In this document: one piece after another, positions 36,001 to 42,000 of the stretch
Position numbering within the stretch: position 1 is the first letter of the stretch
How the letters are laid out: the number at the start of each line of letters is the position of its first letter
Assembly: GCA_963825525.1 (NCBI GenBank)
Contig: CAWGTN010000001.1
Span: 64,001-128,000, forward strand
Length of the DNA stretch: 64,000 bases
Direction: 5' to 3'
Source: an uncultured Chloroflexia bacterium
GTDB lineage: Bacteria; Chloroflexota; Limnocylindria; QHBO01
Program-made: the position numbers

Positions 36001-39000
36001 CCGGTCCCGAGGCGGAGCTGCCGGCGGGGGATGAGCGCACCGATTCTGCGCGTGATCGGCTGGACGAGGCCCGGGTCGCCTATGTCGCCCGCGACCTCGA
36101 TCGGGGTGACGCCGAGATGTCGATCGCCATCCGCCTCGATCCTTCGTTGGCGAGCGACGGTGTTGCCATCATGGAGCCCACCCTGGGCGGGCAGCCCGCC
36201 CCCGAGCGTCTGCTACTGTACGGCGACCTGCTTCGCGCAGCGGGGCGCCGGGTCGAGGCAAGCCAGGCCTATGACCGCGCCGCCGTCCGGCGCGGCTGAC
36301 CCGAACCACACGTCTCCGACACCGCGTGCGGCCGGAGAACCCAGCACAGGAGCGACTCTCGTCATGCAGCGCACTCTCGTCCTCGCCAAGCCCGATGCCG
36401 TGCAGCGGGGTCTCATCGGCGAGATCGTCGGCCGGTTCGAGCGCAAGGGGCTCAAGGTCGTAGGCCTCAGGATGCTGACCGTCTCCCGGCCGCTGGCGGA
36501 GGAGCACTACGCGGTCCACGCCGGGAAGCACTTCTACGACGGGCTCGTCGAATTCATCACGTCCGGGCCGGTGGCGGCCTTCGCGCTCGAGGGTCCCGAT
36601 GCCATCGCCGTGGTCCGCAAGATGGTCGGCAAGACGATGCCGAACGAGGCCGAGCCCGGAACGATCCGCGGCGACCTGGGCGTGAGCGGCCTCCGCAACC
36701 TCATCCATGCGTCCGACGCGCCGGAGACGGCGGAGGCGGAGCTCGCCCTGTGGTTCGGCGCCGATGCCGTGGTCGACTATGTTCGTGAGATCGACGCGTG
36801 GATCGTGGCCGAGGAGCCCGAGCGCGGCTGAGGGCTACTCGCCGGCAGCGGCCTGCAGGGCCGGGTAGTCGGGCCGCTCGATGAGCCCGATGCGCTCGAG
36901 CGGGAAGTAGCGCAGCCAGGCGCGTCCCAGCACGCTCTCCTCGTCGATGGGACCGAACACGCGCGAGTCCTGGCTGAACGGCCGGTTGTCGCCCATCACG
37001 AAGAACTCGTGCGGCCCGACGATCCAGGTCAGCGGGCAATCCTGCCGCTCGCAGAGCGTGGCGGCCGTGCTCCCGTCGGCGTTGGGGACCACGTAGGGCT
37101 CCTCGATCCGGATCGAGCTTCGGTCGGGCCGGCTCACGAAGACCCGGCCGTTCTCGAGGCTGATCGTGTCGCCCGGCATACCGATGATCCGCTTGATGAA
37201 CGGGACGCCCTGCTGGTCCAGCCCGGAACCGGAAGGCGGATCGAACACCACGACGTCGCCGTACTCGTAGCCGCCGAATCGCGGTGTGAGCTTGTCGATG
37301 AGGATGTACTCGCCGTCCACGATGGTGGGGAACATCGAGCTCTGCTGGACCTCGAACGGCTGGGCCACGAAGTTGTGGATGACGAGGTAGATGAGCAGCG
37401 TGAGGACGAGCGTCTCGACGACCTCGAACGCGCAGCCCAGGGCACGACGCGAACCGGCGCGCTCGCGTTGTGCGGGCGCGCCGTCGGATTCGGATTCGTC
37501 GGGGAGGTAGGTCATCAGCCCTGGCTGTGGATGGCGGCCGGCACAGGATAGCGCACCGGAAGCGGTAGACTCGGCTGTCAGATGGGTAGCCTGATCCTCG
37601 TCCGTCACGCGACCACGGCGGCCTCCGCCGCCGGAAGGAACCTGGGCCAGGCCAGCAATCCTCCGCTGTCGGACGCGGGCCTCGAGCTCGCCGAAGCACT
37701 GGGTGTGACGCTCGCCGCCGAGCTCGCCGAACTTCCGCATGACGAGATTCGGCTCGTCAGCAGCCCGGCCCTGCGATGTCGCCAGACGATCGGGGCCATC
37801 GCCACGGCGCTGGGCTTGGATGCCGAGTCGGTCGAGCTTGCCCAGGGGTTGCTCGAGATCGACTACGGCGCCTGGGACGGGCTCACGGCGGCGGAATGCG
37901 AGGCTCGCGATCCCGAGCTTCGTGCGGCATGGGAATCCGATCCGTACGCCACCGCCTGCCCGGAGGGCGAGAGCGGGAAGGACGTGAGCATGCGCGCTGC
38001 CGCCGTGCTCGAGCCGCTCGAGGACTGGCTCACGGCCGACCGCGCACGATGCGCCATCGCGGTCGCGCACAACCATGTGAATCGCGTGGCGATGTGCCGC
38101 CTGCTGGGGTGGCCGATGCGGGACTACCGACGCCGGCTGGCGGCCGATCCCGGCGGCTACAGCCTGGTGACGTTCGGAGGTGCCGGTCCGGTCGTGCGCC
38201 GGTACAACGTTCCCGGAGCCTGACGGTCCACTGGCACGGTCCGTGCGTTGGCGACGAGGCCGGTGATTCGGCCGGTTCTGCGCCGCTGCCTATAATCGCC
38301 GAACCCCATCATCAGTCGCCCGTTCGCGAGGATTCATGTCGATCGAGCTCAGCCAGCAGATCCAGCCGGTCATGCAGGCCAAGGTCACCCCGAAGCAGAT
38401 TGCGGCCAACTACATCCTGCAGATGAGCTCCGTCGAGCTGCAGGAAGCGATCGCACAGGAGCTTGACGAGAACCCGGCGCTCGAGATGGAGGAGCTGCCA
38501 ACATGCGCGATCTGCGGCCGCCCGGTCGCGGGCAGCTACTGCACCGAATGCATGCCACGCAAGGCCGAATCGGAGGGCGACGACGGTCGCGTGAGCCCCG
38601 ATGACCTCCCGGGCGACGGATCCACGCGGCTCCGGGACGAGGCGGACGAGTTCGACCCGATCGCGCGCGCCGAGGCTGATTTCACGCTCGAGGATCACCT
38701 GACCTGGAACCTGCACGCGCAGCTGCCGGGACGCCTCCACCCGGTGGCCGATCACGTCATCGGAGCGCTCGACTCGAACGGATTCCTCACCGAGTCCGAC
38801 GACGAGGTCGCCGGGGCAACCGGGGTGTCCCTGGCGGACGTTGAGCAGGTCCTTGCCGCGATGAAGGGTCTCGAACCGATCGGGATCGGATCGCGATCCA
38901 TCACCGAATCGCTGCTTGCCCAGATCGAGTACCTCCGCGAGCAGGACTCGGTGACGATCCCGCCGCACGCCGAGGCGGTGATCGCGGACCACCTCGCGGA

Positions 39001-42000
39001 GCTGGGGGAGCGGCGATTCCGCGAGATCGGGGTGGCGGTCGGTGCGACCCAGCGACAGGTCATGACCGTCTGGGAGTTCGTGAAGTCGAACCTCAACCCC
39101 TATCCGACCGCCGCGTTCACGGCGGCGGTGAGCGGCGACGCCTCCCGACCGATCATCCGTCCCGACGTCCTGATCCGCGAGAGCGAGGGCGAGCTCACCG
39201 TCGAGGTCGTCGAATCCCGGCGTTTCAGCCTCCACGTGGCACCGATCTACTCCAGCCTGTCATCCAAGCTGCGCAGCGCAGAAACGACGGAGGACGAGAA
39301 GGAGCACGTTCGACAGTACGTGGGTCGCGCCAAGTTCTTCATCGACAACATCAACCGTCGCCGCGCCACGATCCAGCGCATCGCCGAGTGCCTGGTGGAG
39401 CGGCAGCGCGACTACCTCGTGCACGGCGTGCAGCATCTGGTGCCGCTCACCCGCGCCGAGGTGGGGGAGGTCATCGGCATGCACGAGTCGACGGTCAGCC
39501 GGGCGACGGCCGAGAAGTACGTGATGCTGCCGCGTGGCGAGGTGGTGCCGTTCAGTCACTTCTTCACGGCCTCGCTCGGCGTCAAGGACCAGATCAAGCG
39601 GATGATCGAGGCGGAGGACACCCGGCACCCCTATTCCGACCAGGAGATCGCGGATGCGCTGGCCGAAGAAGGGGTTGCCCTGGCGCGCCGGACGGTCGCG
39701 AAGTACCGCGACGAGCTCCAGATCCTTCCCGCCCGGCTCCGCCATCGCTGAGCGGGCACGGGGTCACCGCGCGATGCGCGCCACCGTCGTGCGCAGCCTG
39801 GCCGTCGTCGGCGTCGGAGCCGTCCTGCTGGCGGGCGTCCTGTACGTCGCGAGCACGGTGGACGGGCGAGCCCCCTCGGTGGTGTCGATAGCTCTCACGC
39901 AGCCGGTCCCCGACGAGTCCCTGGTGGGCCTGCCAACCACGAGCCTCGAGATCACCTTCACCGAGCCGGTGGAGACCGACAGCGCAATCGCTGCCCTGGC
40001 GTTCGAGCCGCCGATCGAAGGCAGCGTGAGCGTGGCCGGGAGTGCGGTGCTCTTCACGCCCAGCGAGCCTCTCGAGCTCGCCGCGACCTACACGCTGACC
40101 GTTGCCGCCGGGGTGCGCGATGCGGCCGGCAACCGCCTGACCGAGGTGCCGCCGCCGTTCACGTTCGAGACGACCGGGCCGCCACAGGTGGTCGAGACCG
40201 ATCCGCCGGACGGCGCGACCGGGGTGCTCCTCGATGCGCCGGTATCGATCCGCTTCTCGGGGCTGATGGATACCGCATCGGTGGAGGCGGCGTTGCGCCT
40301 GCGGCCGATCTTCGACCATACCCTCCGATGGAGCGGCCGGCTGCTCGAGATCGTCCCGACCGAGGCGCTGCGACCGGACACCGACTATCGCGTGGACATC
40401 GGTGCGGAGGCGCTCGACACGTCGGGCGTCGCGTTGGGCGAGCCGGTCCGGATGGCGTTCCACACCCTCACGGCTGGTCTCGACGTCACACGCGTCGTGC
40501 CGCGCGATGGGACCGACGGCGTGGCCGCCATATCGTCGATCGCGGTGATCTTTGACGATCCGGTCGATCCAGCCTCCGTCTCGGGCGACGCCATGTCGAT
40601 CCGTCCGGATGTCTCGGGCTCGCTCGAGATCGTCGACGTTCGGGGCGAGACACCCGCCTCAGGCGAGGAGGGCGTGGTGCTCCGCTTCGTTCCCGCGGGC
40701 CCGCTGCCGCCGAACACGACGTTCGATGTTCGACTCGAGCCCACCGTCGCCGGCATCGACGGCGGCGGGCTGGCGGAGCCGCTCACGTGGTCGTTCACGA
40801 CCGGTGCGCCGGGCACGGCACTGACGAACCAGGTGGCATTCCTTTCCGACCGTGCGGGGATCGCCAACCTGTGGGTCATGAACCCGGACGGATCAGGCGC
40901 ACACCAGGTGAGCGCGGAGCTGAGTCCGGTCCTTGATTACGCGATTGCGCCCGATGGGAGCTCATTCGTGGTGGGCGATGGTCATCGCCTCGTCATGCAG
41001 GACGCCGACGGCTCTGACCGGCGCGTCATCACCGACGACGGGTACCTCGAGTTCGACCCGACCTACGCGCCGAACGGCCAGCACCTGGCCTTCGCCCGGG
41101 TCGACGCCACCGACGGGGGCGGGCTCGGAATCTGGCAGCGCTCGATTCCCGGCGACGATGTCTCGGCGATCGACCTGCCGTCACAGGGTGAGCCGGACTC
41201 GGGCGACGTCCCGCACCGTGCACCCCGCTACTCGCCGGACGGCACCGCCCTCGCCTTCGTGGACGCCACGGGGTGGGTCGCCATCGTCGGGTTGGACGAC
41301 GGTACATTCGATCGGGCGAGGTTCGCTGCGGACGTGGTGCCGTCCTGGCTGCCCGACTCGAGCGCGGTGGTGCTCACGGGCCGGCCATCGAGTGTCGGGA
41401 CCGAGCCCGAGCCGGTCGTGGCGCCGGTCGAACCCATGGCCGCGGGGGAGGGAACCACGGTCGCCGTGCTGCGCCGCGACGCTTCCCGGACGGATCCCAG
41501 CGGGCTCGATCCGGGCGCGGTGCTGCTGGCGCTGGGGTCCGACGGCCGCATCGCCTACCGTGACGCCGATGGCGGCCTGTGGGTCAGCGACAGCGTGGAC
41601 GAACCCGGCCGGCGCGTCCCGCGCGTCGACGAGCCGGGGATCAGCGGCGTGGCCTTCTCACCGAATGCCGACGAGATGGTGGTCATCATCCCCGGCGCGG
41701 ATCGGGAGCCGACGATCGAGGGCACGGTCGTGAGGGTCGGCATGGATAACGGGCGACGGCAGGTGCTCGCCAACGACGGATGGCGGGCGCGCTGGCTACC
41801 CTGACCACCGATGCCAGGCGCGTGCTAGAATCCGCGCGCCGTCGCTGGCGGGGTACGTGACCGTGTCCTCCCGCCGGCGCTTCGTGTGCATCTAGGAATA
41901 GGTCTGAGCGAGCCCGATTGAGCGTGGCCGCCGGCCACCGCTCGGAGGATCCATGGAGCTCCAGCCCATCCTGTGGGTGATCCCGCTTGCCGGAATCGCC

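Follow-up and report, generated by a model that had tools for sequence, protein, structure and literature searches.

The window analysed here, a stretch of 64,000 nucleotides from the genome of an uncultured Chloroflexia bacterium (G000), carries rpoN, the single sigma-54 copy of this genome. The only open reading frame listed at exactly 38336..39751 on the + strand translates to 471 residues, and its product passes the NCBIfam equivalog cut-off of TIGR02395 (309.8 bits against 277.35), with a sigma-54 chain (8f1i_M) as its top solved relative (E 1e-49). The features of the locus are the following:

38336..39751, + strand: rpoN, sigma-54, 471 residues plus stop codon (open reading frame, TIGR02395, solved relative)
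38351..38488, + strand: region I or activator-interacting domain (AID), residues 6-51, ending in ENPALE (PF00309)
38504..38551, + strand: four-cysteine knuckle, residues 57-72, CAICGRPVAGSYCTEC (sequence, conservation, AlphaFold2 model)
38552..38668, + strand: remainder of region II, residues 73-111, an acidic linker (conservation, linker composition, pLDDT)
38669..39250, + strand: core-binding domain (CBD), residues 112-305 (PF04963, E 5.7e-36)
39305..39748, + strand: DNA-binding domain (DBD), residues 324-471 (PF04552, E 6.1e-42)
39683-39709, + strand: RpoN box ARRTVAKYR, residues 450-458 (read in the translation)

The AID matches PF00309 with an E of 1.7e-10, scoring 41 bits where 23.8 are required, and AlphaFold2 places helices at its residues 19-29 and 32-45. 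The Pfam limits of the three domains agree with those given by an earlier genome survey, which had also noted four cysteines directly after the AID; counted in the translation, and with the codons checked at 38504-38551, these are indeed residues 57, 60, 69 and 72, beginning six residues past the end of the AID in the spacing C57-x2-C60-x8-C69-x2-C72. As judged from its sequence, the rpoN product is a working sigma-54 with a built-in Cys4 knuckle. The acidic linker that follows ends in a conserved DEFDP (residues 104-108, window 38645-38659), in which D107 is at least 90% conserved among 149 sequences. In the relatives, acidic residues make up 28% of this linker and basic residues 9%, and a median of 33 residues separates the last cysteine from the h-D-P motif. 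In the AlphaFold2 model of the present protein, pLDDT drops under 50 at residues 77-85 and 95-100. The survey's description of published region II as acidic, variable and devoid of clear structure is borne out by the papers, PMC5095919 among them.

A single protein of the genome has a strong match to the activator family PF00158 (246 bits), and it comprises an AAA+ domain with a GSFTGA loop and an HTH_8 domain. The survey had counted one true NtrC-type activator; the number stands, and the type does not, as a receiver domain is absent and the domain composition is PspF-like. This AAA+ activator is the putative partner of the sigma-54 described here.

Conservation and distribution of the motif

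The search for the motif took in Chloroflexota, Armatimonadota, a UBP15-type phylum and Bacillota-type sigma-54s. In Chloroflexota it was found in 155 of 158 sigma-54 sequences (129 genomes), and the four cysteines are present throughout in 126 of the 129 genomes; the same holds for 29 of the 30 family codes. The three sequences with none of the four cysteines (L140, L338 and L339) all belong to one family code, f14, and two of them (L338 and L339) lack nearly the whole of region II. Genomes with two to four sigma-54s carry the motif in every copy (22/22). It was also detected in all 13 genomes of the UBP15-type phylum and in 40 of 58 Armatimonadota sequences, with 17 lacking it and one undetermined, while the nearest outgroup sampled, the Bacillota-type sigma-54s, showed it in none of 66. 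A search of 1.84 billion proteins with residues 1-110 as query recovered the motif in 121 of the best 150 cluster representatives; the remaining 29 are mostly short, or end or shift frame in or before the motif. The survey's statement that the motif is invariant in Chloroflexota was therefore slightly too strong, as the three f14 sequences and a variable spacing attest, and the motif extends further than the survey saw, into Armatimonadota and the UBP15-type phylum.

The consensus is C-P-x-C-G-x-P-L-x-G-x-x-C-P-x-C. The CxxC-x8-CxxC spacing occurs in 143 of 178 sequences, the remainder having loops of 5-11 residues or C-x3-C or C-x-C pairs, and loop length differs by phylum, with x6 forms mostly in Armatimonadota and x8 forms mostly in Chloroflexota. 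Of the 143 sequences with this canonical spacing, 68 have Pro at position 2, 135 have Gly at position 5 and 69 have Pro at position 14. The spacer between ENPALE and the first cysteine is six residues long in 146 of the 178 sequences. The same length was found in all 11 UBP15-type rows of the sample and in 26 of the 39 rows from Armatimonadota. In an alignment of 149 N-terminal segments, whose columns are on average 28% identical, C57 and C72 never vary and C60 and C69 reach a conservation of at least 90%; the variation that is left arises because the loops differ in length. All four cysteines are among the only 28 invariant columns of 13 sequences sharing 31-41% mutual identity. The columns surrounding the nearly invariant cysteines in the wider alignments average 28-30% identity. 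Conservation of the four cysteines, as read from these alignments, is far in excess of chance, and strong purifying selection acts on the knuckle in all three phyla and on each paralogue.

Trees were built from the core-binding and DNA-binding columns only, excluding the motif region, and they separate the three motif-bearing phyla from the Bacillota-type sigma-54s with an SH-aLRT of 100. Presence and absence of the motif require four to six changes on these trees, a pattern that would fit one gain followed by several losses. The knuckle has been lost repeatedly, together with region II. As it is dispensable in some lineages, being absent from the three Chloroflexota and 17 Armatimonadota sequences, any role that it has would be modulatory.

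Resemblance to zinc ribbons

A comparison of the relatives with Pfam revealed a weak likeness to zinc-ribbon families. At E <= 1, the weak matches to DZR (PF12773) cover 115 of 149 relatives (best 2.9e-5) and those to Zn_Ribbon_1 (PF13240) 28 of 149 (best 1.1e-5), while Zn_ribbon_3 (PF13248) matches 17 of 149 and Zn_Ribbon_TF only six, the latter at chance level (best 0.028). No Pfam zinc-ribbon model matched the G000 protein itself at E <= 1, the sole row outside the AID being Sgf11 (E 0.12). Cysteine patterns in general tend to draw weak matches to the zinc-ribbon models of Pfam.

The survey had reported low confidence for the N-terminal model (pLDDT 57.6). With a 149-row alignment, AlphaFold2 now models the knuckle confidently as a hairpin, with block values of 87/85 in a 125-residue model and 91/85 in a 40-residue model; the beta bridges lie at residues 56, 63, 65 and 68. 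Foldseek returned nothing significant with these models (best E 0.34 and 2.9); in VIA fold searches the top Z of 3.7 was on helices only, and the knuckle alone had no Z >= 2. The zinc knuckle proposed by the survey gains from the CPxCG...CPxC appearance, the weak matches of the relatives and a pLDDT of about 85-91, although its metal binding is still an inference. The four cysteines would probably bind Zn(II), and the best reading is that of a Zn(Cys)4 knuckle with a structural role, located where regions I and II meet.

Position in the holoenzyme and possible roles

Structural studies on sigma-54 holoenzymes provide a framework for placing the knuckle. Passages of these papers report that region II.1 fills the downstream channel (PMC5095919), that residues 52-56 cross the beta-prime clamp and that about 30 residues of region II follow the beta-prime side of the cleft (PMC11839083). 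With the homologous holoenzymes of E. coli and Klebsiella as a guide, a knuckle lying six residues past ENPALE would sit where the RNA polymerase cleft opens, on the side of the beta-prime clamp. It is from this position that a disordered acidic chain enters the downstream DNA channel in the model species. Since the linker with its D-x-F-D-P finger motif is otherwise retained, the knuckle may be regarded as a small rigid body added to an ordinary sigma-54. The reading favoured here, with a probability of roughly 0.68, is that of a working sigma-54 in which a Cys4 knuckle of 16 residues, of the short zinc-ribbon type, takes the place of the start of region II, most likely holding one structural Zn(II) and having a mechanical role.

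Such a knuckle could, as a folded plug or anchor, contribute to holding the channel shut before activation. A folded knuckle would also be unable to pass the DNA bubble or the pore of the AAA+ ring, so that threading by the activator and the unfolding of region I would be limited. This putative role as plug or stop is drawn from the solved E. coli and Klebsiella structures, whose proteins have no knuckle. In E. coli, the activator is reported to stop once about 30 residues of region I have been threaded, a halt provisionally ascribed to a local charge switch within that region (PMC11839083). This halt near residue 30 precedes the position of the knuckle by about 25 residues and counts against a role as a stop. 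It is a doubtful extension of the favoured reading that a mechanical stop locked by its metal, which oxidation or loss of that metal might open, sets the end-point of activator-driven sigma-54 unfolding in three phyla. Were it true, sigma-54 activity would hinge on the state of the Cys4 site, and the stop would be a hard-wired answer to what limits threading, a question left open for E. coli in two 2025 preprints, with the regulation of sigma-54 unfolding stated to be unknown (10.1101/2025.02.15.638424).

Several other explanations compete with a structural knuckle. Four thiolates clustered at the protein's regulatory junction might instead form a redox or thiol-stress switch, in which oxidants, sulfane sulfur or electrophiles would release a labile metal from the Zn(Cys)4 site and form disulfides, altering the seating of regions I and II on the polymerase and turning sigma-54-dependent transcription on or off. 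Precedents have been described, including the zinc-thiolate sensor RsrA in sigma-factor control, the persulfidation of PerR at its Cys4 site, and the CorE sigma factor, governed by its own cysteine-rich extension (PMC8999054). Such a switch is nonetheless unlikely, considering that the motif is kept in almost every Chloroflexota family code and in three phyla, that a specialised sensor would be more expected in one copy than in every paralogue, and that a second sensing element is absent from the conserved columns around the motif in the 149-sequence alignment. Motif-bearing lineages range from strict anaerobes to aerobes, which a structural site fits better than an oxygen-linked sensor. The zinc site of redox-sensing anti-sigma factors of the ZAS type has the motif HxxxCxxC. 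A site of this type was rejected for the present protein, where ELPT precedes C57, no His lies four residues before the CxxC and the site is all-Cys.

The knuckle might also be a specific docking surface for a partner such as promoter or template DNA near -12, the beta-prime clamp or rudder, or the activator ring. A defined geometry is suggested by the constant spacer to region I, the loop is conserved at positions 7 (Pro in 78 of the 143 canonical sequences), 8 (Leu or Met in 113) and 10 (Gly in 98), and many relatives have basic residues (...RQK) after the last cysteine; in Helicobacter pylori, moreover, RpoN accumulation needs the separate zinc-ribbon protein FlgZ (PMC3372290). This explanation, which overlaps and is compatible with a plug or stop, is considered quite unlikely, as a single conserved interface should vary less than the loop does in length and sequence between phyla.

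Cysteines that bind iron in a rubredoxin-like manner or another metal, that form two disulfides or that belong to a metal-free hairpin are very unlikely, even though zinc is not the only metal held by comparable motifs. Of 14 Haloferax proteins with a C(P)XCG motif that had been purified, nine bound zinc and five were free of it; three of the five contained another metal and the other two had no ESI-MS analysis, with the authors considering binding geometry to be beyond what AlphaFold2 can tell (PMC11241148). Rubredoxins do appear among the weak, non-significant Foldseek rows (E 6.6-9.9), but rubredoxin families are absent from the 25 Pfam families matched by most relatives. The two knuckles of rubredoxin are also spaced far more widely than a loop of 5-11 residues would allow, and stable disulfides are improbable in a cytoplasmic transcription factor. 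Finally, an inherited insertion with no present function, for which one could cite the several losses in genes that were retained and the description of region II as non-essential in model species (PMC5095919), is most improbable and already disfavoured by cysteines that stay nearly invariant amid poorly conserved columns, rank among so few invariant positions in divergent sequences and persist in all copies of multi-copy genomes.

Comparison with known systems

No report of a Cys4 knuckle inside sigma-54 was found in the literature search. The protein resembles canonical sigma-54 (RpoN of E. coli, Klebsiella and Aquifex) in its three Pfam domains, RpoN box, length and close solved relative (E 1e-49), as well as in a region II that is acidic and closes with a D-rich finger motif and in the presence of an AAA+ activator in the genome. 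It differs in that the solved chains of the E. coli type hold no cysteine at the residues aligned to 57-72, and in that the first 16 residues of a region otherwise described as acidic and without clear structure (PMC5095919) are here a conserved Cys4 knuckle. With DZR, Zn_Ribbon_1 and Zn_ribbon_3 it shares two CxxC knuckles a few residues apart and a CPxCG flavour, but these families are free-standing or terminal modules, none of them known from inside a sigma-54.

FlgZ (HP0958, DUF164) of H. pylori likewise has a zinc ribbon of the form CXXC...CXXC with a functional link to sigma-54, and its cysteines are reported to be required for RpoN accumulation (PMC3372290). It is, however, a separate protein of family PF02591 acting in trans, whereas the ribbon described here is part of sigma-54 itself. 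PF02591 had no match in six frames of the G000 genome (91.84% complete) and is absent from the 25 Pfam families most matched by the 149 relatives; membership of the FlgZ/DUF164 family was ruled out on the lack of a PF02591 match. CorE-type ECF sigma factors also control their activity through a cysteine-rich, metal-binding element of their own, although they belong to the sigma-70 family and have a C-terminal element, unrelated in sequence and position, that senses copper, cadmium or zinc (PMC8999054).

Reviews have likened sigma-70 region 1.1 and segments of TFIIB to region II of sigma-54 (PMC5095919, PMC11839083). Region 1.1 and the ribbon, reader and linker of TFIIB are likewise segments of initiation factors lying in the downstream channel or RNA path, and TFIIB also starts with a zinc ribbon, a likeness that is one of analogy only. 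The TFIIB ribbon contacts a different part of the polymerase, and the matches to Zn_Ribbon_TF are at chance level. Against these systems, this protein stands out by a conserved Cys4 knuckle within a sigma-54 segment that is floppy in the textbook species, shared by nearly all relatives of this protein and across three phyla.

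The sigma-54 of the window and its surroundings

The rpoN gene encodes a protein with four cysteines directly behind its activator-interacting domain (AID, region I), as reported in the survey's finding, with which translation and codons of the open reading frame (ORF) agree; the domain limits reported there were also returned by Pfam. The features discussed here are the following.

Features of the rpoN region and the sigma-54 activator locus
38336..39751, + strand: sigma-54 ORF (rpoN), 471 aa; by Pfam, AID at residues 6-51, core-binding domain (CBD) at 112-305 and DNA-binding domain (DBD) at 324-471
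38504-38551, + strand: four cysteines, residues 57, 60, 69 and 72 (CAICGRPVAGSYCTEC), from the translation, TGC codons verified
37582-38223, + strand: histidine phosphatase (His_Phos_1) gene, ending 112 bases before rpoN
36835-38076, - strand: signal peptidase I ORF, 412 aa, S26 domain at residues 217-389
39654-41804, + strand: Big_5/PD40 ORF directly 3' of rpoN, 716 aa, three Big_5 Ig-like domains and PD40 beta-propeller repeats
Locus L002 of the same genome (contig C2, around 1397244-1397747, outside the window), 1420-2547: sole strong sigma-54 activator, with AAA+, AAA lid, HTH_8 and a GSFTGA pore loop

By every testable feature, the protein is a member of the sigma-54 family. It scores 309.8 bits against the NCBIfam equivalog TIGR02395 (cut-off 277.35), and its closest solved relatives are sigma-54 chains in holoenzyme structures (E 1e-49), none of which has a cysteine opposite residues 57-72 when aligned to it. 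The region I charge order from positive to negative is retained (K16 and K20, then E34, E37, E42, D44, E45, E50, E52 and E53), as are the acidic linker and the DEFDP motif. The start is unlikely to have been mis-called, given that the AID begins at residue 6, that the 471-aa length is common to close relatives and that GAGGA stands immediately 5' of the ATG. The four-cysteine module is marked in this protein by neither Pfam nor NCBIfam, nor in the Pfam domains precomputed for the 120 listed relatives, and its recognition constitutes a gain for annotation.

The source genome (2.58 Mb, 4 contigs, 91.84% complete) holds one sigma-54. A PF00158 search returned one strong activator, at 246 bits, together with four weak AAA matches; no receiver or other sensor domain was detected in this activator, and on either side of it lies one of two similar ORFs (about 220-228 aa) that run on opposite strands (L002 1-684, minus; 2840-3502, plus). 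Next to rpoN, the Big_5/PD40 ORF as listed overlaps the final 98 bases of the gene in a different frame, so its true start probably lies further downstream. The signal peptidase I ORF overlaps the His_Phos_1 gene on the opposite strand, and its long N-terminal part is probably untranslated.

Conservation and range of the motif

A TIGR02395 search of 401 genomes from the window's phylum gave a match in 146, with 115 above the cut-off. The loci comprised 30 that were returned and 116 more that were fetched, followed by the matches of 15 further, lower-scoring genomes. The counts exclude L024, from a genome flagged unpublished, which entered only a first look (31/31 with the motif), three matches of two other unpublished genomes, L037 (in-frame TAG), L151 (N-terminus missing), the C-terminal fragments L348 and L349 and some 23 weak, unlisted matches. 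Four cysteines stand right behind the AID in 155 of the 158 sequences covering the N-terminus (129 genomes, 30 family codes). The motif had been called invariant in Chloroflexota: it is near-universal, and strict invariance fails on L140, L338 and L339 (genomes G255, G090 and G162), which lack every motif cysteine and all belong to family f14; region II is almost wholly deleted in the latter two. In this family just 8 of 25 genomes have any sigma-54 match, several of them low-scoring, and the gene may be in decay there. In the excluded L349 (family f61, from G252, a 1.3 Mb genome), the match to a sigma-54-like protein is limited to the C-terminal half (model positions 192-434) in a 369-aa frame at 120 bits, and no region I was detected.

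Sigma-54 is a single-copy gene in most model bacteria, and two to four paralogues are unusual. Many Chloroflexota genomes hold this number (for example G042, G165, G257, G265, G297, G369 and G385), and the paralogues form separate old clades in the tree. Every copy carries the motif in all 22 genomes with two to four copies.

The spacing is CxxC-x8-CxxC in 143 of 178 motif-bearing sequences; the other 35 have loops of 5-11 residues, a first pair C-x3-C (6 sequences) or a second pair C-x-C (6, family f9). The consensus of the 143 is C-P-x-C-G-x-P-L-x-G-x-x-C-P-x-C, with glycine at position 5 in 135 and proline at positions 2 and 14 in 68 and 69, and six residues separate the ENPALE end of the AID from the first cysteine in 146 of the 178. 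The f9 variant (L107, L116, L120, L133 and L145) combines CxxC, a longer loop and C-x-C and is conserved within its family, whose genomes with this variant also hold a second, canonical copy. Aligned with MAFFT, 149 N-terminal segments have a mean column identity of 28%; C57 and C72 are the same in all of them, C60 and C69 are conserved to at least 90%, and D107 of DEFDP comes next among the region II residues. These conservation figures exclude a chance origin of the motif.

Beyond the phylum, residues 1-110 were compared by phmmer with 1.84 billion cluster representatives, of which 322 proteins matched at E <= 0.001. The pattern occurs in 121 of the best 150; the remaining 29 are mostly short, or break off or shift frame within the motif or before it. 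All 150 listed representatives have a motif-clade sequence as best BLAST match, and some clusters bear the NCBI names Ktedonobacterales, Thermomicrobiales or, for representative P0083, Armatimonadota. Thirteen highly divergent representatives of full length, with 31-41% identity to the first, share just 28 invariant columns, and all four cysteines are among these. A search seeded with the alignment of these 13 returned 80 named loci in GTDB genomes, 78 of which were scored, two being partial. The motif is present in 31/31 loci with Chloroflexota or Thermomicrobiota labels, in one Chthonomonadia locus (C-x3-C-x6-CxxC) and in three loci without phylum label (L171, L176 and L177). It is absent from five Armatimonadota (four Fimbriimonadaceae), 35 Bacillota and three MAGs that bear the labels Betaproteobacteria, Deltaproteobacteria and Ignavibacteriales. 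An ESM Atlas feature search returned AID clusters only, commonest in Chloroflexota.

Three further phyla were sampled. In Armatimonadota, of which L176 is a member, 146 of 201 genomes have a sigma-54 match; 52 loci were read, with four cysteines in 39, none in 12 and one that could not be assigned, bringing the totals with the 78-locus set to 40, 17 and 1. The commonest forms there are C-x2-C-x6-C-x2-C and the x8 form. In the UBP15-type phylum, which includes L171 and L177, all 13 genomes have both match and motif. In the Bacillota-type phylum the motif was found in 0 of 29 readable loci (one further locus is broken) and, with the 78-locus set, in 0 of 66 sequences. The Gram-negative comparison consisted of the solved E. 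coli-type chains alone.

Two UBP15-type sigma-54s of 651 and 631 aa (L275 from genome G611, and P0121) have an insertion of about 150-170 residues early in the core-binding region as well as the knuckle. Public labels of such MAGs are unreliable: near-identical relatives of the window protein bear the depositor names Candidatus Limnocylindria, Angelobacter, Binatia and Methylomirabilota, and the loci labelled Betaproteobacteria (L191) and Ignavibacteriales (L232) come from genomes in the same phylum sample as the Bacillota-type sequences.

Probable metal binding and proposed origin of the knuckle

A Pfam scan of the 149 N-terminal segments at E <= 1 found the AID in all 149 and weak matches to zinc ribbons, namely DZR (double zinc ribbon) in 115 (best 2.9e-5), DZR_2 in 40, Zn_Ribbon_1 in 28 (best 1.1e-5) and Zn_ribbon_3 in 17; at this threshold the window's own protein gave no zinc-ribbon match. 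An AlphaFold2 model of residues 1-125 from the 149-row alignment has a mean pLDDT of 72.9, with block means of 87 (residues 51-60) and 85 (61-70), then 62, 46 and 50 beyond the last cysteine, and isolated beta bridges at residues 56, 63, 65 and 68. A 40-residue model of the knuckle only reaches 91 and 85 across it. For the 125-aa model, the best Foldseek match (E 0.34) was to sigma-54 chains and the best VIA match (Z 3.7) covered helices 6-52 only; for the 40-aa model, Foldseek gave a best E of 2.9 and VIA nothing at Z >= 2. Such null results are expected of a 16-residue module and are neutral on the knuckle. Zinc fingers, RING and FYVE modules, rubredoxins and ribosomal zinc-ribbon proteins make up most of the weak Foldseek rows, which at E > 1 are of no evidential value.

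We know of no typical 4Fe-4S ligand pattern that is evident in the motif. The probability that the knuckle binds metal of some kind is put at about 0.85, and zinc in particular is rather likely, a clear step below that figure. Both estimates follow from base rates for C(P)XCG proteins: passages of one study report that, among 14 purified, nine were zinc-bound, three held another metal and the remaining two were zinc-free without ESI-MS (PMC11241148). According to the same passages, AlphaFold2 is unable to tell whether the cysteines of such proteins are set for binding.

The history of the motif was followed in trees from CBD and DBD columns only, so that its own columns had no influence. In a FastTree of 222 rows, 178 motif-bearing and six motif-less rows form one clade with support 100, all Bacillota-type rows lying outside, and the motif label requires 4 changes. 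In a 311-row tree, the smallest clade to embrace all 227 motif-bearing rows also takes in 17 motif-less ones (244 leaves) and no Bacillota; its support is only 65, and 6 changes are needed. In IQ-TREE (quick, LG+C20 PMSF) on 64 representatives, a branch with SH-aLRT 100 sets the 14 Bacillota-type rows apart from the 50 of Chloroflexota, Armatimonadota and the UBP15-type phylum, again with 4 changes. These trees, and the six-residue spacer that is identical in Chloroflexota, Armatimonadota and the UBP15-type phylum, fit one gain followed by losses, the phyla sampled being these three and the Bacillota-type. The losses would fall in a group resembling Fimbriimonadaceae, in a few further Armatimonadota and in Chloroflexota f14. 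Since the trees have no known root and span limited phyla, the direction of change is one that we infer.

Proposed role and parallels in known systems

Passages of PMC5095919 describe region II as acidic, poorly conserved and largely non-essential, in agreement with the earlier statement that the literature sees it as acidic, variable and structureless. The first 16 region II residues form a strongly conserved and probably metal-bound fold, which contrasts with this view of a variable, structureless and largely dispensable acidic linker; it occurs in nearly every Chloroflexota sigma-54, most sampled Armatimonadota and all 13 UBP15-type genomes. The same passages place the first part, RII.1, in the downstream DNA channel, which it fills as region 1.1 of sigma-70 does, RII.2 on the path of the template, and RII.3, where a DDE motif is conserved, in the RNA exit path (PMC5095919). 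Passages of a recent preprint have shown that residues 52-56 cross the beta-prime clamp near the rudder and that about 30 region II residues follow the cleft on its beta-prime side (PMC11839083). The activator threads about 30 region I residues through the bubble in the DNA, then stops at a defined position, tentatively ascribed to a local charge switch; outside the full complex it unfolds the entire sigma-54. Region II later has to come out of the channel and ends looped round the template strand (PMC11839083). A further preprint calls the regulation of hydrolysis and unfolding unknown (10.1101/2025.02.15.638424).

A rigid knuckle at residues 57-72 would be the only change from an ordinary sigma-54, placed where the chain turns into the cleft. 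This small, presumably metal-stabilised body may help to plug or anchor the channel entrance and, with its metal kept, would not fit through a two-base-pair bubble or an AAA+ pore, possibly capping threading some 25 residues beyond the E. coli halt. The repeated losses show that any such role is modulatory, not enabling. The main rival, in which the four cysteines act as a redox or metal switch, is ranked lower because the site is retained in all paralogues and in nearly all lineages. By homology with the E. coli and Klebsiella holoenzymes, the knuckle sits exactly at the region I exit toward the polymerase cleft, on the segment pulled by the AAA+ activator in passages on recent cryo-EM work (PMC11839083, 10.1101/2025.02.15.638424). 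Owing to this location, such a sigma-54 is a natural variant with which to probe the threading limit, the exit of region II from the channel and metal or redox gating, the repeated losses serving as natural controls.

A literature search, to whose scope most subscription journals and supplements did not belong, came upon no account of a sigma-54 with an internal cysteine or zinc motif. Passages of one comparative paper report sigma-54 in some Chloroflexi and make no mention of the motif (PMC3162934), and in those of another, which are likewise silent on the motif, Chloroflexota, Chloroflexi and Armatimonadota do not occur (PMC12316311). PF02591, the FlgZ family, has no match in the source genome. 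In Helicobacter pylori, according to passages of PMC3372290, FlgZ is a separate zinc-ribbon protein needed for RpoN accumulation, whereas here a ribbon-like element lies inside sigma-54 itself. CorE-type ECF sigma factors likewise have a cysteine-rich element of their own (passages of PMC8999054). Sigma-70 region 1.1 and the TFIIB ribbon and reader parallel the knuckle by analogy only.
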